Source: Naegleria gruberi (lineage: Eukaryota). Taken from it: DNA of 64,000 nt. The DNA lies in the NCBI GenBank assembly GCA_000004985.1, contig GG738862.1, one strand, 5' to 3'. A program made the translations under genes and the position numbers. Position 1 is the stretch's first letter. Each line of letters starts with the position of its first letter. This document shows, one piece after another, positions 4,558 through 61,859 of the stretch. The notes below the pieces were generated by a model that was given only the letters and a program-made list of their open reading frames with translations, had not been told where the DNA came from and searched no databases.

Positions 4558-6165
4558 ATGACTCTACACAAAAGTACTCTTATTCGAAACAATAGTTTAT
4601 TTCCCGATGATATTTGTTTCGAAATTATAGATTACTTTGATTCTCCATTTATCATCAAAACATGTTCTTTAATTTCACATCAATTTTTACGTGTCATAAA
4701 ATTATATTCGAATCTTGTGGTCAATTTCCGAATGATTACTTCAGAACAAATTAATCAATTTTCAAAAAGTCAATTTTTAGGAAATATAAGAAAGGTTAGA
4801 ATAGCAAGTCATCAAATTGAAGGAGAAATAGGTGTTAAATTATTGGAAACTTTATCAGAAATGAAAAATTTAACCTATTTGAATATTGATTGGAATAAAA
4901 TTTCAGAAAAGTCTAAAATTATTCTTTCTGGAATGAAACACTTGAAAATACTTGCTGCTAGCGGATCTGAAATTGATAAATTTAGTCGATTGGATCAATT
5001 GACTGAACTAAATGTCAATTGGAATCGTTTAAAAGATGAAGATGTAGAATCTATTGGAAATTTGAAAAATTTAACTTTATTAGAATTGAGTGGAAATGAA
5101 ATTTCTAAAAATTCAATGAAATTTATTAGTCAGCTCTCAGAATTAACAAAACTTTCTGTGGGATTGAATTCAATTGAAAATGAAGGAATCAATTCAATAA
5201 TCAATCTTTCAAAATTGACTTGTCTAAACATTATTAATGCAAATATTACTTCAGAAGGTGTCAAATTAATTGGAAAACTATCAAACTTAACCATTCTCGA
5301 TATTAGTGGAAATTTAATTGGTGCTGAAGGAGGTCAATACATTGGAGAATTGAAGAATCTCAAAACACTTGTGGCAAGTGATAATGAACTTGGAGTGCTT
5401 GGAGCAAAGAGCATTGGAGAAATGAATCAATTAACTTCACTTTGTTTGATAGGCAATTCTATTGGAAATGAAGGAGCCAAGTATATTTCTCAATTAAGCC
5501 AATTGACTGATCTTGATTTGGGAAAAAATGAAATAGGTGATGAAGGATTTAAACTACTAGCAAAACTTGAAAAGTTGACAAATTTAGATTTGGTTTCTAA
5601 TAACATTTCTGATTTGAGTTCGACTGGTCAATTGGGTTTATTAAACTGCCTTGATGTCAGAAAAAACAAAATAGAGGACAAGGGCATAAGAAATATTTGT
5701 CAATTGAGTGGATTGCAATCACTTCGTCTTTGCGCAAATCCAATCACTTCAGAAGGAGCCAAAATATTATCAGAAATGGTTCAATTGACCAATTTATCAA
5801 TAAGTGAGACCCATATCGATGACGAAGGAGCCAAATTTATAGCACAATTGACAACTCTGAAATATCTTGATATAAGTACTAAAAGAATAACCGCGAATGG
5901 TGTCAAATTTATTTGCCAATTATCGAAACTAATCTCACTCGATATTAATTGGAATAATATTGGAGATGAGGGAGTGTTATATATTAGCAGAATGCAACAA
6001 TTAGAAACACTAAATGCTGTTTATTGTAATATTGGATTGGAAGGCGCAAAACTCTTGAGTGAAATGGAACAATTGACCGTACTTGATGTGAAAATTAACA
6101 GGATACCTGGAGAGGGAATTCAATTATTAGAAAATATTGCACGATTTAAATCATTAGTTGTGTAA
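4558..6165 (+). CDS. F-box-like N-terminus plus about 18 RNI-type leucine-rich repeats (535 aa).
   Basis: N-terminus FPDDICFEIIDYFDSPFIIKTCSLISHQFLRVI is F-box-like. It is followed by repeated units of about 24-28 aa such as LTxLxLxxNxIGxEGAKxIxxLxxL (GNEGAKYISQL, GDEGFKLLAKL, TSEGAKILSEM). The ATG is at 4558 and the stop is TAA. Confidence 0.75.
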   Translation: MTLHKSTLIRNNSLFPDDICFEIIDYFDSPFIIKTCSLISHQFLRVIKLYSNLVVNFRMITSEQINQFSKSQFLGNIRKVRIASHQIEGEIGVKLLETLSEMKNLTYLNIDWNKISEKSKIILSGMKHLKILAASGSEIDKFSRLDQLTELNVNWNRLKDEDVESIGNLKNLTLLELSGNEISKNSMKFISQLSELTKLSVGLNSIENEGINSIINLSKLTCLNIINANITSEGVKLIGKLSNLTILDISGNLIGAEGGQYIGELKNLKTLVASDNELGVLGAKSIGEMNQLTSLCLIGNSIGNEGAKYISQLSQLTDLDLGKNEIGDEGFKLLAKLEKLTNLDLVSNNISDLSSTGQLGLLNCLDVRKNKIEDKGIRNICQLSGLQSLRLCANPITSEGAKILSEMVQLTNLSISETHIDDEGAKFIAQLTTLKYLDISTKRITANGVKFICQLSKLISLDINWNNIGDEGVLYISRMQQLETLNAVYCNIGLEGAKLLSEMEQLTVLDVKINRIPGEGIQLLENIARFKSLVV

Positions 6166-6278: not shown

Positions 6279-7635
6279 TTAGTAGTGATCAACCACTTTC
6301 ATTTTTTTCCTCAGTTCCTTGATTATTCTATCCGAAATATCATCACCAATATAAAGTTTCCTCAAATTGGGCATGTTCAACAAATATTTAGCTCCTTCAT
6401 CTCCAATTTCACAGTGAATGACTGAGAGTTTTTGCAATTGGAGCATTCCACTAATTGCCTCGAGTCCTTTATTTCCAATTTTATTTCCCGAAAGGTTTAG
6501 TTTGGTTAAATTTTTCATTCCACTTAATGATTTTGCTCCCTCAATTCCAATATTACTGTCATAGATACGGAGATTAGTCAATTGATTTAGTTCACTTATT
6601 ATTTTTGCTCCTGAATCTCCAATTTGATTATCACTAATTAAAAGTCTGGTTAATTGATTCAGTTGACCAATTGGTTTGATATCATCGAAACCTAATTTGT
6701 TTGATTGAATATGGAGACAAGTCAATTGTTTCATATTACAGATCGCCTTAATTCCTTCTGTTCTGACATTAGTCCACTGAATGCAAAGTGTTTTTAAGTG
6801 TCTCAATTGACTAACTGAAATTGCACCTCCATCCCCAATTGGATTCTCACTCATGACGAGTTGAGTTAATGTTTGAATTTCACCAATTGCTTTGGCACCT
6901 TCATCCCCAATATTATTTTTACAAATGAATAGTCTTGTCAGTTGAGGAAGTTCACTAATTTCTTTCGCACCTTGATTGCCTAGTTTATTCTTTCGAATAT
7001 CGAGATAGTTTAGTCGTGTCAGATGTTTAAGTGTTTTTGCTCCTTCCTGTCCAATATTATTTTTACGAACACAAAGATGTGTTAATGAAGAATTCAAATT
7101 ACTCAATGCCTTAATACCTTCATCTCCAATTTTGTTTCCACACATTTCAAGTTTCGTCAATTGTTTCATCTTTCCAATAGATTTCATTCCTTCATCTCCA
7201 ATTTCAGTTCCACCAATATCAAGTTTGATTAATTGTTTCAAATTTGTAAAATATTCAGCACCTTTTGAGGTTATTGGATTGTTAAATACATTCAGTTCAG
7301 TAAATTGAGTCATTTCACTAATCAACTTGGCTTCTCATTTCCAATAAAATTATACGAAATTTCGAGTGTTTTCACTTGTTTCATTTTATGAAGAAGCTTA
7401 AACCAATTTTTCCAATCACGTCATAACAATTATCACAATAATTCGCACAAATAGTTCTGCAAGTGATTCTGTCAAACCAATTCCAATTTTGGCATTTGGC
7501 AATTTCGTCCATGTATAAATCCTTGTGAAGGTGAAATGAAAGTTTAAGTCTGTTTCGAATAACATTATACCACCGTTTTGAAACAAGCGCACATTTCATC
7601 AAAATAAATTCCACATTATTCGCAACAAATTTCAA
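6279..7635 (-). CDS. F-box-like/RNI-type LRR protein, probably 2 exons (N-terminal F-box-like exon 7381-7635, LRR exon 6279 to about 7337). The splice junction is not resolved.
   Basis: The 6279..7325 frame has 13 LRR units (IGDEGMKSIGKMKQL, IGDEGAKAIGEIQTL ...) and stays open upstream to a TGA at 7338-7340 with no ATG. The upstream ORF MKFVANNVEFILMKCALVSKRWYNVIRNRL is F-box-like. A candidate 42-nt intron (gtgaaaac...aaatgag) lies between them but the phase does not fit cleanly. Confidence 0.55.
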
Positions 7636-8927: not shown

Positions 8928-8977
8928 NNNNNNNNNNNNNNNNNNNNNNNNNNNNNNNNNNNNNNNNNNNNNNNNNN
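8928..8977. other. Assembly gap (50 N).
   Basis: Run of n characters. Confidence 0.99.
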
Positions 8978-10247: not shown

Positions 10248-10297
10248 NNNNNNNNNNNNNNNNNNNNNNNNNNNNNNNNNNNNNNNNNNNNNNNNNN
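10248..10297. other. Assembly gap (50 N).
   Basis: Run of n characters. Confidence 0.99.
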
Positions 10298-10571: not shown

Positions 10572-13500
10572 GATAACGTAAATGGTTTATATAAGCACGC
10601 AAGCCATAAATCAGTTACTCCTGAATTGAAATCCATGTGTTTAACACATGGAATTCACTTTATGAGTTTAACTGAAACTCACTTAAATACCCCAGAACTA
10701 GAAATAGAAGTCAAAAACTCTGGATCAGGGTACCTATTATTTAACTCATTAATGAATACAAGAAAAGGTTGCAAAGGTACTGCAGCTATGCACTTTCTAA
10801 ATAATTATAGAAAGCGCAATATTACAAATAATAATCTCGTACCTGGAACATTACAATGGACACGATTCGAAAGTCGTGGAATTCCAATTAACATCTTCAC
10901 AATTTATCTTAGTGGAAGATCTAATGATTATGACAATGAGGAAGAAGCTCTTAATAGCTTTATTAATGCTGCCCTCACAATTAAAGATGAACATATTATT
11001 TTAAGTGGTGATATTAATATTGATACAAGAAATCCCACTAGTAAAAGAGAAAAAGACTGGCTATGGATACTTAATCTACTCAGACTAACCGAATTACAAA
11101 CATCCAATAATACTTGGATAAGAAGAGTTCAATCTAATATTTTTGAATCGAAACCTGATCATGTCTTTGTGTCAAAAGACATAAGAATAGTTAAAGAAGT
11201 GCTCATGCCTCCATTAACCACTAATGATCACATTCCTTTCTATATAGATCTCGAATTTAAATCTAACTTAACCTAGAGACCTTACTTTAGTAAGAGTAAG
11301 AGAAAGAAAATATATGAAGAAATTAATAAGTCTCCTATAGATAATTTCAAAGAGTTAAATCAAGCTATCTTGACTCAAATTAACAAATATGGCTCCAAAA
11401 CTGATAGATTAGGTGTTGGTCGAATCTCAACAGCCTATAAAGAAGAAATTCAAGATTTGGAAGAAGAAATTCTTCACAAATTAAATAATGAAACTATTTC
11501 TCAATCAGAAATATCTGAATTACAAACATTACTGAAAGAAACTCATATTAAAAATGGAAAACATATTAAGGAAAAATTGATAGAAGAATTCAATGATAGA
11601 ACTTCATCTAAAATGTATCAATTTGATAGAATGGTTCATTCCAAAGAAATTAAATGGAAAGATATTAATTTCGAAGAAGAGGAAATTTTAGAATACTTTA
11701 CAAATAAGTTTACCTCGACTAATCAACTTCCAACATTCATTCCAAGTAGATCAACTATTAAAGAAGGACCAAATTGGACCAACTCGATCCATATAGAAGA
11801 ATTGGAAAAAGCTTTAAAACGTATGAAATCAAATACCCCTGGTCCTGATCTAATTTCTCTGGATATTATTAAGCATCTCACAGAAAAAAATCAGAAAATT
11901 TTATTGAACGAATTTAATAATTGCCTAAGAATAGGTGATATCTCTGAAGATTGGAAGCAAGGATGGGTGAAACTCATTCCTAAAAGAGATATCACTTCTC
12001 TCAGTGACATTCGTCCAATCACTATTTTACCTACATTTTATAGAATTTTATTTAATATTATAGCCTTTCGACTTAGATCTTGGGCATCATCTCATATAAA
12101 TATGAGACAACAAGCATTTATTACAGACAGAAACACTTTAAATCATGGTGTCCTTCTATCATCATTAGCTATGAAAACTAAGAAAAGAACCTTCATTCTT
12201 GTTAACCTAGATATTGAAGGAGCTTATGATGCTGTAGAATTGTCAGTGATTAAAATGGCACTAGACCATTGTAAATTTCCTAACGAACTCACTCAATTTA
12301 TTATTAATGCCTATAGCAACCATGAATTGAGCCTAGAAATTGATAATCATCTATCCACAAAATTTACAAAAACTCGAGGAATCCCACAAGGATGCCCATT
12401 GGCTCCTCTTATATACGATTGTATCACACAATTAATTATTGATAAAGCAATAGATAAATGGAAAATACCAATCAAACCAAACAAACTATGTGCTAATGAT
12501 ATTGCACTCTGTTGCTTTGCAGATGATATGAATGTTGTCTGTGACAGATATGCCAAATACAATGACAGGCTAGATAACATACATGACTGGCTAGGTCAAC
12601 TACTTTTTAAACTAAATGCAAAGAAATCAGTTGCAACTCTACTACCTAAAACAAGCAAAGTATCTCCCAAAATTAAGGGTACACCTATTCCTAAACAAAA
12701 AAACCTTAGGATACTTGGACATTATCCATGGGATGATATTCTGGTTCGACAAGATATCCAAAACAAAATTGAAAAATTTACCAAATCTTTGAAATTTCTC
12801 CCATTATTCAAAATTGAACCAGATAACCTTAAACAAATTATTCACGCTAAAGCTATTAGCTTATTTACACACCTTTCTAAAATTAACTTAATTCCTCTGA
12901 AAAAGGCACAACAAATTGATATAGCCATTAGAGGAGCAATTAGAAGAAAACTATATATGGACAGGAAAACACCAACCAGCTTATTCCACTTACCATTAGA
13001 AAAAGGTGGATTAGGACTACCATCTATTGTAGAATTTTCTGAAAGAATGAACCTAAGAACCATGACCTTAATTGCTAACAGTAACAATTTACTCGTCAAG
13101 AAAGCTTTCAAACATGGTATCAAGCACTGTGAGGAAACGAAAGACAATATTTATTCGAAATGGCTACTAGTACTAAAAGAATACAACCTCACACTTAAGA
13201 AAAATGAAATGAAATTCAAGTTGAAAAAAATCAAAACAGGAAATAATTTTGATATTCACACTGACGGATCAAGACTCGAATCAAAGACTGGAATGGGGAT
13301 TAATATCTATGATTGCTCCAATATGAACACTCCAGTTAGATCTTTATCCCTCCATATTAATGATCAATATTCAAATAATGTAGCTGAAATATGCTCTATT
13401 ATTACAGCAGCTAAAGTTATCCCAAGAGACTCCAAGATTAAAATCCATACTGATAGTAATGTGGCAATTTAAGTTCTCAAAGAACGATATAAGGGAAACT

Positions 13501-24440: not shown

Positions 24441-27377
24441 TTACATTCTATTCATTTCTTGAAAAATTGAAAATTCACAAATGAAAGAATGGTCAACTTG
24501 CAATGAAGGTGAGGCAAATTGCAGAGCCATTTCATTTTGTTTGACAGCTACTTGTACAAACTCTTTTGTAGATCTCAATGTAGGACTGCAATATTCCAGT
24601 GCAAGGCCATTATATTTGACAAACTCTATCATGACTTGCTCATTATCTTTGTAATGATCTGGTAATAAATCTAAATACTTGATTTCATTTGTGATTTTTA
24701 CAGATTCCAATAGAAATTCAGAGTGATTTCGTAAATAGTTCTGTGAAACAAATGGCAATAATCCTTTCACATCAAGCTTGAGAATATTTTCATCGGTGAA
24801 TGCTTGTGAAGCCAAATTATTGTAATTTCTGTATCCGCATTGGATGGCTATTTTGATAATTTCCTTTTCATACTGAAGATGTGATGGTATCAAATTGAAT
24901 AGTTTAGGATAATTAGAAAGCAATAATTGTATCATTTCAATTGATTCCTTGAGATTTTCATCCAAATGTCTGAAATTATTTGGATCCTTCAAGATGGCAC
25001 GTTTCATAAGTTCAGCATCTGACCTCTTCTCTTTTGGAAATTGAGAAACATTGACTCCCTTATCAATACATGTAGCTAGAAATTCATCTTGACATTTTAA
25101 ATCATTACAAGCAATCTGAAAGAAATCTTGTCCATACTCTACAGCAGATTCAATAAAATCCCTATCTTCAGAAAACAGTTCAATAAGGAATGGCATTGGA
25201 ATCTTGTATCTATCCACTGAGAGAATAGAAAGAAGAATCTTACGTATGGTTCCTTTTTGCTGATCATCCAAATATCTTTCTTTTAGTTGTTGTAAAGCTT
25301 CTTCGTCTAGAGAAGTGCTACCAGATAGAATGTCAACAACTTCCTCAATCATAACCATGTCTACCAGAACAGTTTCGAAAAATTCACGTAAAATAGCTTT
25401 GGACTTTCTCTTTTCGAAAGGAAGTTTAAAGAATAAATCTCTATCAAGAGAAAGTGCCTGACTGGCTAATTCATCATAGAATGGTAGAGAAGGATCAAAC
25501 CATGCTGTTTGTTCAATGATAGAGGGGTTGTTAGTGATAACATCAATAAGGAACTGAGAGTTTGTTTTTAAATCTTTGTGAATTTGTCCAAAGTTTCTGT
25601 ACGGGTTGAGGGTTACTGATTTGAGAGCTAGATCTCTATTTCCCTTTAGTCTTGCACTCGCATAGCTAAACAGTTCGGGATCTTTCTCAATAATTTCATT
25701 CATAATTTCCAAATCATCTCTTATTGATGGTGGAGCGAATTCAATGACTTGCAGATTATTTTGAAGAGCAATCTTGAAAAATTCCAAATCATTCATATAA
25801 TCTCTCAGATACTGTAGACAAGCTCCATTAACTGATACAAACTTCAATAAGTATTCTCTGTTCCACTTCATTTCCTCTGGTATGAATATGATTGTTTCTT
25901 CATTGTACTTGACAAGATTTAAATAAAAATCCAAATCTCGATGTCTATTCTCACCTCTTGAGAATCTATTCCTAATTTCAGGTTTTATCCATCCCAAATT
26001 TTGTTTGACCACTTGTTCTAATTTAGGATCTTGATTCAATTCTTCTGAAATGGTTGTAATTGCCCAAACGTTTTGACGTAAAGCTTGGAGTACAACTTCT
26101 GTATCTTTTCTATATTCAGGATACACATACTGAATGGCTATTCCATTTCTCTTTAAGACTTCCAATACAAAATGCTTATGTTGATAGGGAGATAGTTCCA
26201 TACAGAAAGGATGAATGCTGGCAGCTTCCAAATGTTTGTGCCACAATGTTGAATTGTTTGGATTTTTAAATGCTTGTGTGTAGGCTTGTGAAATGGCAGC
26301 CATTTTGTGCATGAAACTAACTCTTTCTTTTCTATTTGGATTTTTCAATGTTTCAACAATCTTTCGAATAAAATCAGTAGGAGTATTTCCAACAAGCTGC
26401 TCAATAGTTACACCCAACGAATACAAATCTGTATCAATACCGTATGGAAGTGGTAAATTCTTCCTTTCCTCAGGTTTAATTTTCTTCAAATTCTCAATAT
26501 ATTCAAATATAATTGGATCCATATAACTAAGAGTACCTCCATCGTTCACCTCTTTGATTGATTTTTGACTAAATGATAATCCAAAATCTCCAACAACCAC
26601 CTGAATACTTTCCAAATCAAAATCAATACTTCTGACCAATAAATTTCCTGGCTTGATATCTCTATGACAAATATTCTTTTTGGAAATATATGAAAGTGCA
26701 TCACAAACCTGAGCTACAATTTGAATAAGCATTGAATCAGTGAGCTTTCGTTTATAGCTAACCAGAGATCCCTTCTCCATAAATTCCATTTCAAGACAAA
26801 CCATTCCCTCAATAATGTGAAAATCATCAACTTTTACAATATGTTCATGATCTAATTGAATTGAATTTGCCAATTCCTGAAATCCAATAACAGTAGAGGA
26901 ATTTGTAATACATTTAATGGCCTTCCTATTCTCACCAATCAACACTGTAAAAACAGATCCAAATCCTCCTGAACCAACACAATCGTCCACTTTCAATCCT
27001 TTCGAATAGAAATATTCTTTCAACCTTCTCTCCGTTGTATTTTCATTTAACATTTTCTTCAATTGTTCCTCACGATTATTAAATTTATCATTTTCATTCT
27101 TCATTGTGGTTTGTTCTCCATCCCGATCATCATTAATATTCATATTAATATTATTTAAATTATTTAAATTATTTAAATTATTATTATTGGGTAAAACATC
27201 AACTAAATTCAAAGCCTTCTTTTTCTTAAGTTGTCGAAAGGAAATTGTTTTTTGATTAGTTTCATCATCATCACGCATGACTTGAACAGTTTCATCATCA
27301 CTAAAATCATCGGAAGAGTCTAATAAAATTTTGATAGATTCTTCTCTCTTCCTTTTGTGTGCTGCGTCATTGAGCAT
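24441..27377 (-). CDS. Ser/Thr protein kinase (N-terminal) fused to a long array of about 30-aa DUF4116-like repeats (978 aa).
   Basis: Kinase motifs GSGGFGSV, AIKCI, HRDIKPGNLL, DFGLS, and an APE-like segment. C-terminal repeats have the consensus YNGLALEYCSPTLRSTKEFVQVAVKQNEMALQFASPSLQ, that is (A/G)LxFASxxLRxDxE(F/I)VLxAVxxNGxAL. Confidence 0.75.
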   Translation of the reverse strand: MLNDAAHKRKREESIKILLDSSDDFSDDETVQVMRDDDETNQKTISFRQLKKKKALNLVDVLPNNNNLNNLNNLNNINMNINDDRDGEQTTMKNENDKFNNREEQLKKMLNENTTERRLKEYFYSKGLKVDDCVGSGGFGSVFTVLIGENRKAIKCITNSSTVIGFQELANSIQLDHEHIVKVDDFHIIEGMVCLEMEFMEKGSLVSYKRKLTDSMLIQIVAQVCDALSYISKKNICHRDIKPGNLLVRSIDFDLESIQVVVGDFGLSFSQKSIKEVNDGGTLSYMDPIIFEYIENLKKIKPEERKNLPLPYGIDTDLYSLGVTIEQLVGNTPTDFIRKIVETLKNPNRKERVSFMHKMAAISQAYTQAFKNPNNSTLWHKHLEAASIHPFCMELSPYQHKHFVLEVLKRNGIAIQYVYPEYRKDTEVVLQALRQNVWAITTISEELNQDPKLEQVVKQNLGWIKPEIRNRFSRGENRHRDLDFYLNLVKYNEETIIFIPEEMKWNREYLLKFVSVNGACLQYLRDYMNDLEFFKIALQNNLQVIEFAPPSIRDDLEIMNEIIEKDPELFSYASARLKGNRDLALKSVTLNPYRNFGQIHKDLKTNSQFLIDVITNNPSIIEQTAWFDPSLPFYDELASQALSLDRDLFFKLPFEKRKSKAILREFFETVLVDMVMIEEVVDILSGSTSLDEEALQQLKERYLDDQQKGTIRKILLSILSVDRYKIPMPFLIELFSEDRDFIESAVEYGQDFFQIACNDLKCQDEFLATCIDKGVNVSQFPKEKRSDAELMKRAILKDPNNFRHLDENLKESIEMIQLLLSNYPKLFNLIPSHLQYEKEIIKIAIQCGYRNYNNLASQAFTDENILKLDVKGLLPFVSQNYLRNHSEFLLESVKITNEIKYLDLLPDHYKDNEQVMIEFVKYNGLALEYCSPTLRSTKEFVQVAVKQNEMALQFASPSLQVDHSFICEFSIFQEMNRM

Positions 27378-33337: not shown

Positions 33338-36300
33338 TTATTGTAATTTAGCAAAATTTCTTGGTGCTTTTCGATATTTGTTGTGGACAAATTCCAAAAA
33401 GTCATTCACCAATATTTCATTAGAATCGTGCATGTCCATAAAATCAGAAGGGAGAGAGTGAACTGGAATGCTTAATTGATAAAATTGATTTCTATTGTTG
33501 GAGGTTTGAGGAATTGGTTGTGGTGGAGGTGGACCGTGTGGATTAGAGATGGGAAATGAAGATGTTTCACTTTTAAAAACTTGTTGTTGTTGTTGAGGAT
33601 TGATCATACTTGAGGGTGGACTTGATCTGTTATTAGGTGGTGGCGGTGCAGTCATTGGTGAATTAGAGAAAATTGAGGAAAGAGAAGGTAATGAAGAGGA
33701 TCCAGTGGACACAGGTGATTGTTTTACATGAGACTGGTGTGATTGGGTTGGATATGGTGGGCTTCCAGAAGAAGATCTAACCTCTGATGGATGTTGTTGT
33801 TGTGAATAATAATGATTATTTTGAGAAGGGTTACCATTAACATTATTACTATCAAATATTAAGGAACTTGCACTGTAACTTGGCCTATAGGTTGATTGTT
33901 GTTGTGGAGGTGTTCCAAAAGATGAACTTACTGCATGGTTAATAGGTTGATTGTTTGAATAATAACCATGTCCTCCACCAGCAGAGGATGCAGCAGGACT
34001 ACCAGAAACATGATTAAATGATTGATTCGAATGACGTTGAGGTGGTTGATGATTCTTATAACCATCCATATAATACGGTGAAGGGGCTTGTTCTGGATGC
34101 AAGGGCGACACCACCACGTTATAGTGTTGTGGTGATTGTTGTTGGTGTGAAATACTGCTGTTATTGGCAAGCTGAGACAATTGGTTTCTAGAATCCCTTA
34201 AAGGTGGTGTTTGCTGGTGGTATGTTGTTGTTGTATGATGAGGTGTATGTGTTGGGGGATATGGATTGTAAGCATGTGAATGATTCGCCGAATGTTGCGA
34301 AAAGGTAACTGAAGGGGATTCATCACAAATTAAGGAATTTGATTTGGTGTTAGCGCCATCGCTTAGTGAAGAGGCCACTTGCCTTAATTTGGCACCGATT
34401 GGAGAGGAAGAAGATCCAGAATTAGAGGAAGTCAAACCACCATAACCTCCTCCACCTTGAGGGGTTGCACTGATACTTGTTGGATTTCCTGTGAGAGTAC
34501 CTTTTGCAGTCTTGATTCTCCGTTTGTCGAAGAAGAAGGAACGTGCAGTAAGGCAAACAATAGTTGGACTAAGCAAGAGTGAAATTCGTGTCTGTTGTTG
34601 TTGTTGTTGTTGCTGTAGTTCACTTAGATACGGGAGTGCAATCATTTCAAATCTAACTTTCAATCTCTTGTTCACAACCTTGACTGTCTTTCTTTCCAAA
34701 GAGAAATCCAAATTACGAGAGTAGACCAAGAATGAATCCACTGGTTTTTCCTCCTGTTCATTATTCTTTAAATATTTCTGATAGCATTGAATTGGATCTA
34801 GAGAAAATTCATGAACTAGCACTTCCTTTGCTGTAAATTCAGCATTCTTATAGAGTATTTGGTATTTGATTGGTGAAATAATGGAAGGATTTAAATTACC
34901 AGATGAAAAATCATCGAAAATTGTTTTAAATTGATTCAGAGTTTGTTCCTTAATTTTCACCCATAAATGAAGAACTACTTGCTGATTTTCATACCATGTT
35001 AAACCTTGTGTTTCTGAAGTATCTGGTGAATTTCTTCCACAAGAAGATGCAGAACTGGTTGAATCAGTACTCTTTCCACTTTCAAAATTTGTAAAAACTC
35101 CATTTGGTGTGCATTTAATATAGTCAATTCGAGTTAAATTACTATTATTATTTGCAGAAGAACTGCTCGATGATACACCATTCAATATAGATCCTTCAGA
35201 AGAATTAACACCAGTATTAACAGTAGCAGAAGTGGCAGTATTACTGTTCACTGAATCATAATTTCCACAAGAATTTAAATTATTTGCTATTGTGGAATTT
35301 GAGGTAGTGCCTGTCGCAGATAACAAGGATGGATTGTAATAACCATCTGAAAATAGCTGTCGCATATCACTATTAGAAAGATGCAACTCAAATTCTAACA
35401 TTTCATGCATGTGACATGTCATCCTCTCCACAAGTCTTTTAATGTGTTGATCATTTTCAATCATCGAAATAACATTATTTTGATGATATTGTTGTTGTGA
35501 TGTAATATTATTACCGTTATTTGAGTAGGAATGATCAGTCATCTGATTGTGGCTAAGTGATGATGGATTTGATTGTTGTTGTTGACCCATCATATTTAAA
35601 GAATTATTGGGAGAAGGATCCACGGCAAACGTTTGATTTGTTGTTGATCTATAAACTATATTTGAATACATAGTTTGTTCACTACCACACTGTCCATTGT
35701 TATTAGTATTAGTATTAGTATTCACATGTGGTGATTGCATCCTATTTTGTTGATTATTGTAATATGATTGTTGTCCTGTTGTTGGTGGAGGAGGATTTGA
35801 TGATGATGGCAACACGTGATGATGGTGGTGTGAATTTGTTTTGTTTTCCAAAACGGAACCGTCTTGCTGTTGTGAAACTCTTTGTTGAATCACTATGGGA
35901 GAACACATGTTCGAATCTTGGTGAATGGTAGGCAATGAACTATAGCTCGATTGAATTTCACAGGACATATTTGTGGCCTTACTACCTAATGTGAGATCAC
36001 AAAGATCGGTGCTATGAAAGCTCTTTGAAGAGTTGGCAGGTTGTTGTTGCCTTTCATTCATAGATGGTTGTTGGTTGGATATATGTGATGAGGCGGTGAA
36101 GTTTTTTGGAGTTGGAGATGATTGGATTCGTAGTATAGAAAGATTGCTACCATGCATGGTTGTAGGCTGAGGTGGAGAATGGAAACTTTTTGGAAAAGAA
36201 TCCTTATATAAGGATGTTGATGAAGCATGTGGGGAAGTCTGATAAGATGCAATTACATTCATATTGTTTGCTTGATTATTGGAAGTAGTTTGATTTAAGG

Positions 36301-36451
36301 GTTGTTGTGTTGAGTTGAGATGGTGATGGGAATATGTTGATGTTATTCTTCTTAAGGATCCTTCTTCTGCTTCTTCTTGTATTGCTGGGAATGAATTATT
36401 TGGAGAGTGTTGTTGTAGTGGGGAATTGTCCATCATGAATCTATAACTCAA
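33338..36451 (-). CDS. Large (1037 aa) Q/N/S/P/H-rich protein, possibly nuclear, with an about 200-aa conserved-looking central globular region.
   Basis: Central segment GLTWYENQQVVLHLWVKIKEQTLNQFKTIFDDFSSG...FSLDPIQCYQKYL...FLVYSRNLDFSLERKTVKVVNKRLKVRFEMIALPYLSELQQQQQQQ, flanked by homopolymeric Q/N/H/T tracts. Confidence 0.55.
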   Translation of the reverse strand: MSYRFMMDNSPLQQHSPNNSFPAIQEEAEEGSLRRITSTYSHHHLNSTQQPLNQTTSNNQANNMNVIASYQTSPHASSTSLYKDSFPKSFHSPPQPTTMHGSNLSILRIQSSPTPKNFTASSHISNQQPSMNERQQQPANSSKSFHSTDLCDLTLGSKATNMSCEIQSSYSSLPTIHQDSNMCSPIVIQQRVSQQQDGSVLENKTNSHHHHHVLPSSSNPPPPTTGQQSYYNNQQNRMQSPHVNTNTNTNNNGQCGSEQTMYSNIVYRSTTNQTFAVDPSPNNSLNMMGQQQQSNPSSLSHNQMTDHSYSNNGNNITSQQQYHQNNVISMIENDQHIKRLVERMTCHMHEMLEFELHLSNSDMRQLFSDGYYNPSLLSATGTTSNSTIANNLNSCGNYDSVNSNTATSATVNTGVNSSEGSILNGVSSSSSSANNNSNLTRIDYIKCTPNGVFTNFESGKSTDSTSSASSCGRNSPDTSETQGLTWYENQQVVLHLWVKIKEQTLNQFKTIFDDFSSGNLNPSIISPIKYQILYKNAEFTAKEVLVHEFSLDPIQCYQKYLKNNEQEEKPVDSFLVYSRNLDFSLERKTVKVVNKRLKVRFEMIALPYLSELQQQQQQQQTRISLLLSPTIVCLTARSFFFDKRRIKTAKGTLTGNPTSISATPQGGGGYGGLTSSNSGSSSSPIGAKLRQVASSLSDGANTKSNSLICDESPSVTFSQHSANHSHAYNPYPPTHTPHHTTTTYHQQTPPLRDSRNQLSQLANNSSISHQQQSPQHYNVVVSPLHPEQAPSPYYMDGYKNHQPPQRHSNQSFNHVSGSPAASSAGGGHGYYSNNQPINHAVSSSFGTPPQQQSTYRPSYSASSLIFDSNNVNGNPSQNNHYYSQQQHPSEVRSSSGSPPYPTQSHQSHVKQSPVSTGSSSLPSLSSIFSNSPMTAPPPPNNRSSPPSSMINPQQQQQVFKSETSSFPISNPHGPPPPQPIPQTSNNRNQFYQLSIPVHSLPSDFMDMHDSNEILVNDFLEFVHNKYRKAPRNFAKLQ

Positions 36452-55035: not shown

Positions 55036-55593
55036 ATGAGTTCATTTCGAGGAAAGACTGATTATTTGAGCAGAAAGCCATCTCCTTCATCCATATCGTC
55101 GAGTAAATTATCGGGGAAGAAGATGAAATTAAGTGATGAACAAAAACAAGAAATTAAAGAGGCTTTTGATTTATTTGATACAGATAAGGATGGACAACTT
55201 GATGCTCATGAATTTAAAGTTGCTATGAGAGCTTTGGGATTTGATGTTAAAAAGGAGGAAGTTCTCCGATTAATTAGGGAAAATCTTGATGAACGACCTC
55301 TCGATGATTCTTATCCAATGCTGATAAGTGCCGATTCATTCATGCAAGTAATGACAGATAAGATTTTAGAAAGAGATCCACTGGAGGAAATTAGAAAAGC
55401 ATTTAAATTGTTTGATGAGGATGGAACTGGAAAAATCAGTGTTAAAAACCTGAAAAAGATTGCAAGAGAAATTGGAGAAAGTATGAGTGAAGAGGAATTA
55501 CAAGCCATGATTGATGAATTTGATTTGGACAGAGATGGTGAAATTAATGAGAATGAATTTATTGCCATCATGAGTAACAATGAAGATTATTAA
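55036..55593 (+). CDS. Centrin/caltractin-family EF-hand protein (185 aa) with a Ser-rich N-terminal extension.
   Basis: [38 protein letters not shown] (EF1), [30 protein letters not shown] (EF3), [25 protein letters not shown] (EF4). The centrin-type N-terminal tail is [14 protein letters not shown]. The second EF loop is degenerate ([12 protein letters not shown]). Confidence 0.75.
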
Positions 55594-55695
55594 AATTAAT
55601 TATTTCTAAATAATATGTAATTGATTATTATTTTCTTTATTAATTTTAAATCATCTTATAATAATTTAATAAATAATTTAAACAAGATCAAAAAA

Positions 55696-56358
55696 ATGCC
55701 ATCACAAACTCTTTCCCATTTTGTGGGTGATTTAAAGGAATTTTTATTTAATGCAAAGAATTTAAATGCTCCAGAAAATCTGCCGGAACCATCATCCTCG
55801 GAGGAACCAACATCAACATACTTTTTTGAATTGGGAAGGATGTACAATTCGAAAATTGAATTTTGGTTGGCCAAAATGAGAAAGTTTTCCTATGCTTTTG
55901 CGTTATTGACAGTATTACATTTTTGTAAATTATTATTTCATGATTCTATAGATTCGGAAATGAGTCAGTGGAGCGATTTGATGGCAGTGGAAACAGCTCA
56001 AACATTTGTCTTGTCAAATTATCCACTTGTTGGATCGATATTGAATTTAGTATTTGTCAAATTATTAATCTTGATCATGACATTCACTTTGTGTTATCAA
56101 TATTACAACAAGACTAATACTGAAAATATGAAACGACTCAATTTTATCTATTATGCAACAAGTGTTGACATTTTCTTCTTCATGTTACATGTTGTTTTCT
56201 TCTTGTGGAGAGAATATTACACTAACAATGATGGATTATTCATGTTTTCTGATCCACTGTTTAATAGTGTGACATATGTTGGATGGATCATTGTTTCCCT
56301 TTTCTATGTAAGTTGTTTTTCAAATTTGTATGAAATATTTACAATTCATTTTCAATAA
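55696..56358 (+). CDS. Small multi-pass membrane protein (about 220 aa), function unknown.
   Basis: Four or more hydrophobic segments (FSYAFALLTVLHF, LVGSILNLVFVKLLILIMTFTL, VDIFFFMLHVVFFLW, VGWIIVSLFYVSCF). The ATG is at 55696. Confidence 0.5.
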   Translation: MPSQTLSHFVGDLKEFLFNAKNLNAPENLPEPSSSEEPTSTYFFELGRMYNSKIEFWLAKMRKFSYAFALLTVLHFCKLLFHDSIDSEMSQWSDLMAVETAQTFVLSNYPLVGSILNLVFVKLLILIMTFTLCYQYYNKTNTENMKRLNFIYYATSVDIFFFMLHVVFFLWREYYTNNDGLFMFSDPLFNSVTYVGWIIVSLFYVSCFSNLYEIFTIHFQ

Positions 56359-56999: not shown

Positions 57000-59900
57000 A
57001 TGGGTAAAGACGATATTGTTTTCTTACCATCCAAAGAAGTGGTAATTAGTACAATTAAAAAGTTTCAAACAGATTCTTCACTTGAATGGATATTCTTTGC
57101 CTATCAAGAATCTGATCCATCCACAAAACTTGCCAAAGGAAACAGCAATACTATTGAATTGGCTCGTACAGGAAGTGAACCACTCGATAGAAATCAATTG
57201 CAAACTCTTCGTGATGTGACAAAGGATTCTGAAGAAAGTATCAAGGCCTACCTCTCTCCACACAGTGCCAACTACTTTATTGCTCGTATTGATGCAAATC
57301 GTTACATTTTCATTAATTGGATTGGTACAAAAACCAAGACATTACAAAAAACCAGAGTAATGACTCACAGACTTGAATTGAAATCAATGGCTGAGAAATT
57401 ATTGTCCATGTCCTTTGTTTTCGATCATAATGGAATTGATGAGTTTGACAAATTGGTTAATATTGTTGATTCTTCTCGTTCTTTTGAATTTGAAAATATG
57501 AAAGATCAAAAACAAACATCCTCTCCACGTACCACTACTACCACAACTGCTACTACTGGTGGCTCTTCTCAAGTTGCCTCTGCCTCTGCTTCTTTAAAGT
57601 CTGCTTCTTCTTCATCATCATCATCATCTAGTAATACTACTAGTGCTAGTTCTTCTTCAAGTGGTAACAATTCTGCCACTAAGGGATCCTTAATGAACAG
57701 ATACAATCCTCAAACTTTAACAGAACAAGAACAAATCAATGCTAGACGTCATCAACGTTCTGGATCCAAACCACCAAAACTTGGACTTGCTGCAATTATG
57801 CGTCAAGTGTTGAAATTGGACGAAACAAACATTACTCCACTCTTGAAACAACGTTCATTTGGTTGGTTATTGTTGGGTTATAATGCTGATGGTTTGTGTC
57901 AAGTTGAAGGTCAAGGAAATGATCAATGTACATTCCCAGATCCACTCTTTGATGCTTTGAAAGAAGATGATATGCAATATATTGTTCTTCGTTGGGTTTT
58001 ATCTGACACTGGTTATGGTGGTGATGTTGAAAAGACCTATTTCTTGTCATATGTTGGTTCTGCTGTTAATTCTGTTCGTCGTGGTAAGGTAAATCAACAC
58101 AAACAAGAAGTTTATGATTATGTTAATAAGCATTTCCAATTGGGAGGTGAAGTTACAATTACTGCTCTTGAAGAATTGAATGTTGATTACATTAAGAATG
58201 TCATGTTGGGTAATAGAAGTGCTAATACTGTTACTTTGACAGATTGGGGTACTGTTCCAGTTAAGGCATCCCCAGTTGTTGGACAAACTAGTCAACCAAA
58301 GGCAACTGCTTCTCCAATCAATTCTCCAAGAAACATCAAGAAGGAAACAGCTACTGCTTCTGTTGCTACATCATCAGTTACAACAGATGCTCCAGAAAAA
58401 CCAATCGAAAGAAAGGGAAGTGAATTGTTGAGTAAGATTAAATTGGGATTCAAGGAAGGAAAATTGAAGGGTATCAAGGGAACTACTCCTGAACCTGCTG
58501 AAGATCTTACTTCACCTAAGAATTTGAAATCTCCTGGAAGAGAACCACTTAAATCACCAGGTAGAGATGGTCTTACTTCTCCTGGAAGAAAAAAGTCAAC
58601 CAAGGGTGGTATTCTCAGTTTCTCAGCTAACAATATGGACAAATTCTCTGCTAGTTTGAAAAAGAAGGATATTGTAAAGGTTCCTAATTTGGGAACTGGT
58701 CAAAACGCCATCAAGATTGAAGACGAAACTAAGGTTATTGACAAGTTGTACGATCTCAAAGATCCACTCGATAGAAATAACCAATGGGTTTTATTCAGTT
58801 ATCCAAATGACAAGACTCTCAATATTTTATCGCTTGTTGATAGTGGTTCTGAACCAATTTCTAAATCTGTTGCTGTCACCTCTCAATTGACTGATAATGG
58901 TGTCAAGTACTTTATTCACAAGTTCTACGTTGAAAGAAATGGAAGAATTGAAGCTAAATTCAGAGTTATTATCTGGAGAGGTAAATCTATTAGAGCTTAC
59001 TTCAAGGCCATTTGTACTAACCATGCCATGAAGTTGGTCACTACTATTGCTCCTGTCATTACTCAAGTTGAAGGTGATCCAATTATTTTGACTGATGTTG
59101 CTGAAGTTCCAAATGTTGTCTTATCATTGGAAGGTTTTGGTACTCCACTCGATCATGATTCTGCCATTAAGAAATTGGAAGAAAAATTGGCTGCTGCTGA
59201 ACAACGTGAAAAGCAAAAGGAAACTTCATCACCATCCAATAAGATCCAACACGAAAAGAGAGTGTCAATGAAGAAGGCTGATTACAATGCAGGTATTGAA
59301 GCTGGTTTGAAGATTTTGAACGAAGAAGAATTGATTCAAAGAATGAAGGAATTGCAAAGTGATGAAAGTGCCGTTTCCTGGGTCACCATTAGTTATAAGG
59401 ATTCCAAGACTTTGCAACTTGATGGATATGGTTCTGGAACTGCTGAATCATTCAAATCCAAGTTTACTGATGATAAGGTTTACTACACATTGTACAAACA
59501 ATTCTTGGAAGAATTGGGTGGTGCTCCAAAGACTATTCTCATTGCTTGGGTTGGTCAAGATGTCAAGCCAATGGCCAAGGCCTCTACTACTCCTCATCGT
59601 ATTGCTCTCTTCAAGTATTGCTTACGTCACGTCACTTTATCTAGTGAATATCAACCAATCACTATCAATGATTTGGATAATGATTCAATCTTTGGTAAGG
59701 TTTCTGGTGGAAGCAAGAGTGGATCAAGTGGTGTTGTTTCTAAATCATTTGGTGGTAAGAGTCAATCCCTTACACTCGCTGATGAGAATATCATTCTCGA
59801 ACAAGTTAAGGATTTGAATTCTGATGCCACTGCCACAAACTGGGTCAAGCTAGGATATAATGAATCTGGACATTTGAAATATGAAGAAAAGGGACAAGGT

Positions 59901-61859
59901 GGTTTGGCTGAATTTGAACGTCGTCTCTCTGATGATTCTGTAAATTATGTACTTTACAAGACCTATGTTGAACACAGTCCAAAGATTACTTTGATTACAT
60001 GGGTCGGTTCTGGTGTCACTGCTGGTACTGCCAAGGCAAGAGCTACCACACATCAACTTGAATTGGAAGCTTTCGTTAAGAAGGTCTTCACTGTTGCTGC
60101 TTTATATCAAGCTTTAGAAAGAGAAGAATTGAAGGAAGAATTAATCTACAAGAAGGTTGCTGGTTCCAACATTATTATCGCTCCAACTGCTGTCTCAAAG
60201 GGTACATTTGGTGGTAGAGATTCTAGTTTGAAATTCGATAATGATCAAGCTGTTCTTGATGCTTTCAAGGAATTGAGAGGAAATTCTGGAATCAGATGGT
60301 TGCTTTTCGAATATGTTCCTGGAAATCAATACACTGTTCGTGTTTCTCAAATCGGTAAGGGAGGTGTCAGAAACTTCAAACAATACCTCACTGATAACGT
60401 TGTTTGCTATGTTGTCATGCGTTTGACATTTATGGAATATTCAGATGTTGCCAAGGCTATTGTCATTACATGGGTTGGTGAAAATGCTCAAAGTTTCCAA
60501 AAAGCCCTCTCAGGTGGTCATAGAATCAACTTGTACGATTTCACTAGAAAGCAAATCTCAGTTGGTGGTGAATATCAACCTGAAAGTCTTGAAAGCTTGT
60601 CTGATGAAGATTTGCTTTCCAAGATTACTGGTACTAAGAGTGATAATGCTGGTGATGCTTTAGAAGAAAAGATTCAACAACAACGTGCCTTTGAAAGAGA
60701 ACGTATTGTGCAAGTTCAACCAACTATTGAAGTTAAGGATTCCAAGCAATATATTGGTGAATTTAAGGATATTGATTTTAATGGAAAGGAAGAAATCAAG
60801 AAGGCCTTGTTAGAACTTTCTGAAAAGTGTAGAAAGGAACAACATGATAGAGCTCTTGAAGATGCCACCATTCACTACATTAAGATGAAGTTGACTGGTA
60901 AGGAATTACGTGATGTAGTCATTGAATCTACTGGAGATGGTGCATTGAGTGAAGAATGGAGAGCTACTCATCTCGATTCAAAGGAATTCCTTCTCTTCAT
61001 CTTTGGTTTGTTCACATCTGAAGGTGGTTATGGTATGATGACCAAGTATGTCTTTGTTCAATGGACAGGACATGATACCAAGCACTTGTTGAAGGCCAAG
61101 GCCAGTGAAATCAGACAATCCATCTACAATTTCTGTAATAAGGAGTTGAACATGTCTGGCGAAATTCAAGGTTGCACTAAACCAGAACACATTACCAAGA
61201 AGTTGGTTTTGGAAAAGATTACCGGTTCAAACGTTCGTGGTAGTGAAATGAGATTGGAAAAGAAGGACAAGAAATTCGAAGGCTTGGGTAAGGAAAAGAA
61301 GAGTAAACTTGTCATCAAAGACCAAGAAACATTGAATCACTACGTTGAAGATATGATTCTCCAAGATTACCTCGAAAAAGATGAGGATAAGAAGGACGAT
61401 GATGATCCAGAAGAATGGAGAAATCACAAGAGAATTACTAAAGGTAAACTTGATTGGATCTTGTTGAGCTATTCCAAGGATTCCATTGATGAAATCAACG
61501 TTACTGCTCATGGTGAAGGTGACGTTCAAGCTTTTAAACAACACTTGAAACCAGATAGTGTCAACTTTGTAATTATCAGAGTTTTCCACGCTCAAGGTTA
61601 TGCAAAGGATATTTCCATGTTGACCGATAATAGAATCAACCTTGCCAAGCCATACTTTACTCTCATCTATTGGAAGGGAGAAAATGTTCAAGTTTTAGAA
61701 AAGGCTCTCACTTCTCATCACTTTAATGCATTCCACAAGTTGATGACTCAAAAATTCATGAGAATGAAATCATCACTCCAAGGTTCAACTTATCAAGCTG
61801 AAACTTATGAAGAATTGGACATGGAACGTATTAAGAAATTGATGAGATTGTATGATTAA
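57000..61859 (+). CDS. 1619-aa protein composed of about 8 tandem ADF-H (coactosin/Abp1-like actin-binding) domains separated by Ser/Thr/Pro-rich linkers. Codon usage is that of a highly expressed gene.
   Basis: Repeated units of about 130 aa: ...ANYFIARIDANRYIFINWIGTKTKTLQKTRVMTHRLELK, ...SWVTISYKDSKTLQLDGYGSGTAESFKSKFTDDKVYYTLYKQF...ILIAWVGQDVKPMAKASTTPHRIALFKY, ...ATNWVKLGYNESGHLKYEEKGQGGLAEFERRLSDDSVNYVLYKTY...ITLITWVGSGVTAGTAKARATTHQLELEAFV, ...RWLLFEYVPGNQYTVRVSQIGKGGVRNFKQYLTDNVVCYVVMRL...IVITWVGENAQSFQKALSGGHRINLYDF, ...YVFVQWTGHDTKHLLKAKASEIRQSIYNF, ...DWILLSYSKDSIDEINVTAHGEGDVQAFKQHLKPDSVNFVIIRVF...FTLIYWKGENVQVLEKALTSHHFNAF. The pattern matches coactosin (xxNWxLxxYxxxxxLxxxxxGxGGxxEFxxxLxDDxVxYxxxxV...KxVxIxWxGxxxxxxxKAxxxxH). 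Confidence 0.7.
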   Translation: MGKDDIVFLPSKEVVISTIKKFQTDSSLEWIFFAYQESDPSTKLAKGNSNTIELARTGSEPLDRNQLQTLRDVTKDSEESIKAYLSPHSANYFIARIDANRYIFINWIGTKTKTLQKTRVMTHRLELKSMAEKLLSMSFVFDHNGIDEFDKLVNIVDSSRSFEFENMKDQKQTSSPRTTTTTTATTGGSSQVASASASLKSASSSSSSSSSNTTSASSSSSGNNSATKGSLMNRYNPQTLTEQEQINARRHQRSGSKPPKLGLAAIMRQVLKLDETNITPLLKQRSFGWLLLGYNADGLCQVEGQGNDQCTFPDPLFDALKEDDMQYIVLRWVLSDTGYGGDVEKTYFLSYVGSAVNSVRRGKVNQHKQEVYDYVNKHFQLGGEVTITALEELNVDYIKNVMLGNRSANTVTLTDWGTVPVKASPVVGQTSQPKATASPINSPRNIKKETATASVATSSVTTDAPEKPIERKGSELLSKIKLGFKEGKLKGIKGTTPEPAEDLTSPKNLKSPGREPLKSPGRDGLTSPGRKKSTKGGILSFSANNMDKFSASLKKKDIVKVPNLGTGQNAIKIEDETKVIDKLYDLKDPLDRNNQWVLFSYPNDKTLNILSLVDSGSEPISKSVAVTSQLTDNGVKYFIHKFYVERNGRIEAKFRVIIWRGKSIRAYFKAICTNHAMKLVTTIAPVITQVEGDPIILTDVAEVPNVVLSLEGFGTPLDHDSAIKKLEEKLAAAEQREKQKETSSPSNKIQHEKRVSMKKADYNAGIEAGLKILNEEELIQRMKELQSDESAVSWVTISYKDSKTLQLDGYGSGTAESFKSKFTDDKVYYTLYKQFLEELGGAPKTILIAWVGQDVKPMAKASTTPHRIALFKYCLRHVTLSSEYQPITINDLDNDSIFGKVSGGSKSGSSGVVSKSFGGKSQSLTLADENIILEQVKDLNSDATATNWVKLGYNESGHLKYEEKGQGGLAEFERRLSDDSVNYVLYKTYVEHSPKITLITWVGSGVTAGTAKARATTHQLELEAFVKKVFTVAALYQALEREELKEELIYKKVAGSNIIIAPTAVSKGTFGGRDSSLKFDNDQAVLDAFKELRGNSGIRWLLFEYVPGNQYTVRVSQIGKGGVRNFKQYLTDNVVCYVVMRLTFMEYSDVAKAIVITWVGENAQSFQKALSGGHRINLYDFTRKQISVGGEYQPESLESLSDEDLLSKITGTKSDNAGDALEEKIQQQRAFERERIVQVQPTIEVKDSKQYIGEFKDIDFNGKEEIKKALLELSEKCRKEQHDRALEDATIHYIKMKLTGKELRDVVIESTGDGALSEEWRATHLDSKEFLLFIFGLFTSEGGYGMMTKYVFVQWTGHDTKHLLKAKASEIRQSIYNFCNKELNMSGEIQGCTKPEHITKKLVLEKITGSNVRGSEMRLEKKDKKFEGLGKEKKSKLVIKDQETLNHYVEDMILQDYLEKDEDKKDDDDPEEWRNHKRITKGKLDWILLSYSKDSIDEINVTAHGEGDVQAFKQHLKPDSVNFVIIRVFHAQGYAKDISMLTDNRINLAKPYFTLIYWKGENVQVLEKALTSHHFNAFHKLMTQKFMRMKSSLQGSTYQAETYEELDMERIKKLMRLYD

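Follow-up and report, generated by a model that had tools for sequence, protein, structure and literature searches.

An eight-domain ADF-H protein of Naegleria gruberi as a candidate multivalent F-actin binder, and its relatives among amoeboid protists

The gene NAEGRDRAFT_57728 lies on the plus strand, at 57000..61859, of a 64,000-nucleotide stretch of the Naegleria gruberi nuclear genome (contig GG738862.1 of assembly GCA_000004985.1; the window, in what follows) and encodes a protein of 1619 amino acids (aa; ~178 kDa) built from exactly eight actin-depolymerising factor homology (ADF-H) domains, U1 to U8. Each of them is kept in its own position in related genera, and the last two form a conserved C-terminal pair which is found in other amoeboid protists. 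From the domains and their residues it is proposed, with a probability of about 0.55, that the protein is a multivalent binder of the side of actin filaments (F-actin), which would stabilise or bundle them by avidity.

A search of the whole protein with the Pfam Cofilin_ADF profile (PF00241) gave eight matching stretches (E=3.1e-86), and when each segment was scanned on its own all eight exceeded the Pfam gathering score of 22.4 bits (scores below). Since the two long linkers (1 and 2) matched no Pfam family in their own scan, the protein has exactly eight ADF-H units, where the first-pass annotation of this DNA had counted at least eight; a cryptic ninth domain within the long linkers was rejected. 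Neither an SH3 domain nor any Pfam domain besides Cofilin_ADF was found in the whole-protein scan, and an NCBIfam search gave no match. The units, whose envelopes were placed with a profile built from the units themselves, and their linkers are as follows.

57000..61859, plus strand: whole gene, NAEGRDRAFT_57728, a single-exon open reading frame (ORF) from ATG to stop (ORF list, Pfam, protein record)
57012..57494, plus strand: U1, aa 5-165, with an insertion of ~25 aa in its first half and Arg at the position equivalent to Lys75 of human coactosin-like protein (CLP) (Pfam, 29.7 bits)
57495..57779, plus strand: linker 1, aa 166-260, 95 aa of low complexity, Ser plus Thr (S+T) 43%, poorly conserved, with a conserved end, QRSGSKPPKLGLAA (no Pfam family)
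57780..58244, plus strand: U2, aa 261-415 (Pfam, 42.1 bits)
58245..58703, plus strand: linker 2, aa 416-568, 153 aa, S+T 21%, with the conserved basic motif RKGSELLSKIKLGFKEGKLKGIK (no Pfam family)
58527-58589, plus strand: 24-nucleotide tandem repeat in linker 2, 2.6 copies, encoding three SPGR motifs (aa 511-530)
58704..59153, plus strand: U3, aa 569-718 (Pfam, 27.6 bits)
59154..59300, plus strand: linker 3, aa 719-767, 49 aa, charged and probably helical, with a weak Stathmin match only (Pfam, composition)
59301..59726, plus strand: U4, aa 768-909, of generic Abp1/drebrin-like type, best PDB match drebrin 5y1z (Pfam, 52.3 bits)
59727..59762, plus strand: U4-U5 linker, 12 aa, SGVVSKSFGGKS, with the motif SK..FGG[KR] (linker comparison)
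59763..60185, plus strand: U5, aa 922-1062, of generic type (Pfam, 54.8 bits)
60186..60221, plus strand: U5-U6 linker, 12 aa, TAVSKGTFGGRD, with the same SK..FGG[KR] motif (linker comparison)
60222..60653, plus strand: U6, aa 1075-1218, of generic type, with the top Pfam score and a position kept in relatives as far as Paulinella (Pfam, 56.8 bits)
60654..60764, plus strand: U6-U7 linker, aa 1219-1255, 37 aa, charged and well conserved, FERERIVQVQPTIEVKD (alignment)
60765..61244, plus strand: U7, aa 1256-1415, divergent, its first helix extended, with E.GYG..TK....W.G as invariant motif (Pfam, 23.7 bits)
61245..61325, plus strand: U7-U8 linker, aa 1416-1442, 27 aa, conserved and basic, ...KF.GLGK..KS.L (alignment)
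61326..61856, plus strand: U8, aa 1443-1619 (profile envelope 1443-1617), with a 12-aa F-loop insertion (Pfam, 52.0 bits)
61374..61418, plus strand: acidic stretch of U8 ending in Trp, EKDEDKKDDDDPEEW (DDDDPEEW), aa 1459-1473 (alignment)

Two patterns had been attributed to every unit in the first-pass annotation, and each is present in seven of the eight: W-[IVL]-x-[LF]-x-Y is missing from U7, which reads HYIKMKL, and W-x-G from U2, which reads YVG. The description of the linkers as Ser/Thr-rich fits linker 1 and, weakly, linker 2, but not the others, which are short (12 aa) or charged. U7 is closed by TGSNVRG immediately before the U7-U8 linker, and U8 carries the invariant motifs KPY...W.G...EKA...HH..F.K and, at its C-terminus, MRL[YF][DE]. 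The SPGR motifs of linker 2 fit an S/T-P-x-K/R pattern; since they are absent from the orthologues, the repeat is probably a recent expansion confined to the species. The FGG[KR] motif of the two 12-aa linkers was rejected as a general feature, being seen in heterolobosean orthologues only.

The translation of the ORF is 100% identical to the N. gruberi protein XP_002678271.1 (EFC45527.1, UniProt D2VBU3, NAEGRDRAFT_57728), named only 'predicted protein' in the source record, and 57000-61859 is one uninterrupted ORF, in agreement with the intronless 1619-aa gene first described. Neither Ns nor long or near-identical DNA repeats were found inside it. Willaertia magna (P0006) has the eight units in the same order, as have two independent assemblies (P0003, SRA run SRR29240419; P0004, ENA ERZ27315067); in each of these two assemblies the gene is likewise a single uninterrupted ORF. 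The Acrasis orthologue has eight units, partly collinear with those of Naegleria. Thus, a mis-assembled tandem array, against which the first reading of this DNA had warned, is ruled out by the divergence of the units, the repeat-free DNA and the recurrence of eight-unit ORFs in independent assemblies.

Pairwise identity among the eight units is just 19-32%. Across orthologues, identity amounts to 0.6-0.86 in the domains versus 0.30-0.45 in the linkers, and this far better conservation of the domains indicates that selection acts on each of them. A unit-by-unit comparison pairs each of the eight positions with a single counterpart in Willaertia, and in Acrasis the positions are for the most part collinear. 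The polymer of modules initially envisaged is not a uniform one, but consists of eight position-specific, specialised domains with a conserved C-terminal pair.

Codon usage in the gene is biased. Its effective number of codons (Nc) is 35.6, versus 35.0-45.4 in the other window ORFs of at least 300 aa; the fraction of lysine codons that are AAG (0.68) is the highest among the window ORFs compared, and the codon-usage count gives likewise high preferences for TTG, GGT and CCA, in a window with a GC content of about 33%. The preference for these four codons claimed from the sequence alone thus holds relative to the window neighbours. The bias is consistent with an abundant protein, and high expression may be inferred from it.

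Regarding the type of domain, the profile of the eight units was searched against all PDB sequences, where the best match was drebrin-like/Abp1 (1x67; E=2e-17), followed by drebrin (5y1z; E=2e-12), the Entamoeba coactosin EhCoactosin (4liz; E=1e-11), human/mouse CLP (E=2e-10 to 2e-9), actophorin (E=7e-8) and cofilins (E=1e-5 or weaker), with no twinfilin or GMF at E<=0.01. On this profile, the Abp1/drebrin/coactosin clade comes nearest to the units, and the cofilin, twinfilin and GMF classes are further away, a result that refines the coactosin-like type originally assigned by putting drebrin-like/Abp1 ahead of the coactosins.

The residues relevant to F-actin binding were located in an alignment guided by hidden Markov models (HMMs), in which Lys75 of human CLP lies six residues before the Trp of W-x-G (W-6) and the long helix starts at W+10. 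Lys75 is essential to the binding of F-actin by human CLP (PMC4161475). Its equivalent is Lys in U2-U7 and Arg in U1, being thus basic in seven of the eight units; in U8 it is shifted two residues, behind the F-loop insertion. At W+10 all eight units have Lys or Arg, as do Abp1, drebrin and EhCoactosin. Both basic residues are kept in Willaertia; in Acrasis, W+10 is basic in all eight units and W-6 is lost in units 1 and 3. The Naegleria units have one basic residue at the aligned long-helix position versus two in cofilin and twinfilin, proteins that depend on both (PMC2447895).

A structure prediction, one of the checks suggested at the outset, also matched ADF-H folds. The AlphaFold2 model of U7-U8, made from a nine-sequence alignment, has a predicted local distance difference test score (pLDDT) of 77.6 and a predicted template modelling score (pTM) of 0.50, and its halves were matched by Foldseek to the ADF-H domain of drebrin (5y1z; template modelling score, TM, 0.81), EhCoactosin, cofilins and GMF, with weaker fold matches to gelsolin and villin. 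In this model U7 and U8 adopt the ADF-H alpha/beta fold, and the same fold is predicted from sequence for U1-U6; a single-sequence AlphaFold2 model of U4-U6 (pLDDT 35) was uninformative.

The distribution of such proteins was surveyed by scanning 1.84 billion representative proteins in full with HMMER; the unit profile gave 1852 matches, the best 150 of them being mostly multi-domain proteins. Full units were then counted in 173 rescanned proteins, that is, these best 150 of the 1852 matches plus orthologues and cluster members: two units were found in 77 proteins, three in 45, four in 10, five in 12, six in 8, seven in 3 and eight in 6. Among the named sources are Acrasis kona (Heterolobosea; 8 units), Vermamoeba vermiformis (Amoebozoa; 6 units), Dermamoeba algensis (Amoebozoa; 4-5 units) and Paulinella micropora (Rhizaria; 7 and 8 units), the remaining survey proteins coming from metagenomes or SRA assemblies. 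Proteins with 3-8 units are thus present in at least three eukaryotic supergroups among the named sources, all of which are amoeboid (Naegleria, Willaertia, Acrasis, Vermamoeba, Dermamoeba and Paulinella). Word-indexed homologue searches with unit and cassette profiles returned essentially nothing.

Taking into account that dozens of clusters with 3-8 units exist in at least three supergroups, the Naegleria gene is a long member of an existing, undescribed family. The search of other genomes recommended by the first-pass annotation succeeded, with multi-ADF-H architectures in Heterolobosea, Amoebozoa and Rhizaria, and its claim of a novel architecture stands in part: in the literature searched, no paper was found on proteins with three or more ADF-H domains, but the architecture is not unique to this gene.

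When the units of these proteins were typed, by means of an HMM for each of the eight Naegleria unit types and by comparison unit by unit, two groups were distinguished. In the first, of about 20 clusters in the survey, the proteins end in a U7-type unit followed by a U8-type unit (the U7-U8 cassette). This pair stands alone in P0038 and P0102, of about 300-370 aa, and closes the architectures 6-7-8, 4-7-8, 4-6-7-8, 5-4-6-7-8 and 3-4-5-6-7-8, as well as x-2-3-4-6-6-7-8 in Acrasis and 4-4-5-4-6-7-8 and (7-8)x4 in Paulinella. The alignment of the cassette in nine proteins, from Naegleria to Paulinella, has 41 invariant columns, which include the inter-domain linker and both motifs of U8 given above, and the Naegleria protein shows all the features proposed for the group, namely the U7-type and U8-type units, the ...KF.GLGK..KS.L linker and the MRL[YF][DE] end. 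The second group, to which the amoebozoan examples belong, has only generic U4/5/6-like units, 2-6 per protein; as the units of these arrays do not correspond by position to those of the Naegleria protein, the arrays are probably expansions that were separate or became homogenised.

The link to Paulinella relies on gene models of one genome project, in which Ala/Ser-rich tails and an identity of just 34% with the cassette of N. gruberi make it unlikely that they are contaminants from a relative of Naegleria. The (7-8)x4 protein of P. micropora, P0020 (EukProt EP00808_P007603), has 2177 aa and four tandem U7-like/U8-like pairs; the di-domain cassette is duplicated there as a unit. In P0028, a Logan contig of 5212 nucleotides, a single ORF carries a coronin-type DUF1899 + WD40_4 + WD propeller (aa ~248-611) N-terminal to a 5-4-6-7-8 array, and is on sequence grounds a coronin/ADF-H hybrid without earlier description. 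Coronin is an F-actin-binding propeller, and this fusion therefore provides independent circumstantial evidence for arrays acting on F-actin. A parallel is found in villidin of Dictyostelium, which joins WD repeats to gelsolin repeats.

In reviews of the superfamily, five ADF-H classes are recognised, with one or two domains each (PMC5297645, PMC2447895). It is tentatively suggested, at somewhat less than even odds, that multi-ADF-H proteins could constitute a sixth class, in which the U7-U8 cassette follows zero to six generic coactosin/Abp1-type domains, present in Discoba (Naegleria, Willaertia, Acrasis) and Rhizaria (Paulinella), with parallel uniform arrays in Amoebozoa.

As for function, coactosin and Abp1 bind F-actin with low affinity, without binding monomeric actin (G-actin) or disassembling filaments (PMC2447895), and for such binders avidity by multimerisation would be a sensible design. 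In the mechanism proposed, each unit would be a weak binder of the F-actin side, like single coactosin or Abp1 domains, and eight of them in one chain would yield high avidity. The chain could cover several adjacent subunits of one filament, protecting it against severing by cofilin; in particular, the 12-aa linkers could place U4-U6 on neighbouring sites of one filament, where they would compete with cofilin in the way of EhCoactosin, which stabilises the F-actin that it binds and prevents its severing by cofilin (PMC4161475). Alternatively, the N-terminal units could reach a second filament, leading to bundling or cross-linking, as U1 and U2 are separated from the U3-U8 run by flexible linkers of 95 and 153 aa.

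Among the known systems, coactosins (Dictyostelium coactosin, human COTL1 and EhCoactosin) share with the units the ADF-H fold, profile E-values of 1e-11 to 2e-10, the Lys75-equivalent and the basic residue of the long helix, and by analogy with them the Naegleria protein would be expected to bind the F-actin side, stabilising filaments without severing them (PMC4161475). They are, however, proteins of ~17 kDa with one domain, where the 178-kDa Naegleria protein has eight, specialised by position, and a conserved terminal pair. Abp1, drebrin and drebrin-like (HIP-55) proteins give the best sequence and structure matches (1x67 and 5y1z), and the acidic motif ending in Trp of Naegleria and Willaertia resembles the DDW of Abp1; unlike the Naegleria protein, they join one N-terminal ADF-H domain to helical and proline-rich regions and, in Abp1, also to an SH3 domain. 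The nearest analogy in design is offered by gelsolin and villin, which carry in tandem 3-6 copies of a small domain that binds actin and has a fold related to that of ADF-H, although no gelsolin-family Pfam match was found in the Naegleria protein, whose domains are bona fide ADF-H. Nebulin-type rulers or stabilisers also align many tandem weak actin-binding modules along one filament, an analogy for single-filament decoration only, since their fold is unrelated, their repeats are far more numerous and much shorter, and length control is not indicated for the Naegleria protein.

Several points weigh against this proposal. The K75A mutant of EhCoactosin retains F-actin binding (PMC4161475), which makes Lys75 an imperfect marker and the conservation of the residue no proof of binding. 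The Pfam scores of U1, U3 and U7 lie close to the threshold, and these units may have acquired other partners; the ADF-H domain of drebrin binds ZMYND8 in structure 5y1z. In the U7-U8 model the inter-domain geometry is unreliable (pTM 0.50), and the sequence and model data do not separate the decoration of single filaments from bridging between filaments.

Among the alternatives, the one that survives best, although an unlikely one, is that the protein organises actin monomers, either through tandem units that bind G-actin to sequester it or to nucleate filaments, or through capping of barbed ends by U7-U8 in the manner of twinfilin. Tandem actin-binding modules can nucleate filaments, Spire and Cobl being tandem WH2 proteins that align actin monomers for nucleation. 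Moreover, EhCoactosin, a close structural match, binds G-actin (PMC4161475), whereas the Abp1/coactosin clade generally does not, and the units have a single basic residue in the long helix instead of the two that are critical in cofilin and twinfilin (PMC2447895). Twinfilin is the sole class described so far in which a protein has more than one ADF-H domain; as a pair, U7-U8 of the model matched best, in chain order, the twinfilin structure in complex with actin and capping protein (7ccc_B; E=8e-10), and the stand-alone pairs P0038 and P0102 are twinfilin-like in size. However, the TM of this match is just 0.31-0.33, so that it reflects the order of the chain and not a common domain arrangement, and the cassette profile matched no twinfilin sequence even at E<=10. 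The identification of the pair as twinfilin was thus rejected: the relation is no closer than the superfamily, and twinfilin differs in its long-helix signature and in having two domains versus eight.

Still less probable is a role as a regulator of the Arp2/3 complex, like Abp1, with its ADF-H domain and acidic DDW, or GMF. The docking site of the array would be either the filament or Arp2/3 itself, with recruitment or modulation of the complex by the acidic-Trp motif. The units are indeed most like Abp1/drebrin-like ADF-H domains, GMF structures appear among the fold matches, and DDDDPEEW (aa 1459-1473) resembles the DDW motifs of yeast Abp1, which bind Arp2/3 (PMC2190564). Nevertheless, this Trp is absent from Acrasis, Paulinella and metagenomic relatives that keep the rest of U8, and the stretch, conserved in Naegleria and Willaertia only, was rejected as a conserved Arp2/3 motif; in addition, the motif is single, the Pfam scan gave no SH3 domain, and GMF sequences were not matched at E<=0.01.

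It is very improbable that the ORF encodes a polyprotein, cut into single coactosin-like proteins as polyubiquitin is, even though units of the same fold stand in tandem in one ORF and SK..FGG[KR], present in both short linkers, could in principle be a processing site. Polyproteins typically have near-identical units, held alike by concerted evolution, while those of the Naegleria protein are divergent, with each of them conserved at its particular position from genus to genus; its linkers, of 12-153 aa, have no motif common to all, and the conserved U7-U8 linker together with the coronin fusion argue for an intact chain. Finally, an artefact of assembly or a false gene model can be practically dismissed, in spite of the scaffold gaps elsewhere in the window and the truncated model that is the N. 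lovaniensis entry, in view of the gene free of Ns and long repeats, the identical protein on record, the eight-unit single ORFs of two independent assemblies and Willaertia, and the eight partly collinear units of Acrasis.

With regard to the genomic surroundings, the gene has as upstream neighbours in N. gruberi an EF-hand gene of centrin-like type (55036-55593) and a hydrophobic ORF of 245 aa (55621-56358). In the Naegleria-like orthologue loci L001 (480-1850) and L002 (2337-3707), an eEF1A gene with GTP_EFTU domains lies directly upstream of the multi-ADF-H gene, and local synteny is therefore not conserved. The gaps of the scaffold are runs of Ns at 1097-3838 (2742), 8928-8977 (50) and 10248-10297 (50), the first of which accounts for the near-zero GC in the composition profile. 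A 619-aa ORF with RVT_1 and RNase H domains (11613-13472, plus strand), 1.3 kb downstream of both 50-N gaps, is probably a retrotransposon copy. Elsewhere in the window are found a convergent pair of leucine-rich-repeat genes of LRR_6 type (4558-6165, plus strand, and 6279-7313, minus strand), a protein kinase of 978 aa that carries five DUF4116 repeats in its C-terminal part (24441-27377, minus strand) and a 1032-aa orphan ORF without any Pfam family at E<=1e-5 (33338-36436, minus strand), around which, at 32-38 kb, the GC skew is unusually high (+0.17 to +0.30).

Few actin-binding modules are universal, and ADF-H domains belong to these few. The domain is well known and its general role predictable, and domain databases will already show multi-ADF-H architectures automatically. 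In the literature, with subscription journals outside the coverage, no paper was found on NAEGRDRAFT_57728, on Naegleria ADF-H or coactosin proteins, or on any protein with at least three ADF-H domains, and a proteomics paper on N. fowleri mentions, of the ADF-H-type proteins, cofilin only.

Amoeboid protists of at least three supergroups have thus built arrays of 3-8 ADF-H domains, some with a common conserved terminal cassette. These arrays could show whether multimerisation turns weak side-binding ADF-H domains into stabilisers, rulers or bundlers, as has occurred with the related gelsolin fold. Crawling is very fast in Naegleria amoebae and involves no cytoplasmic microtubules; in the lethal pathogen N. 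fowleri, both motility and phagocytosis are actin-dependent. A putative actin organiser that is codon-biased, possibly abundant, lineage-restricted and without human counterpart makes a biochemical look worthwhile. If the cassette is as old as the early eukaryotes, and animals, fungi and plants have lost it, amoeboid cells would have kept in it an ancient tool for organising filaments, and the proteins that carry it could, for example, be a multivalent stabiliser or bundler that supports fast, microtubule-independent crawling.

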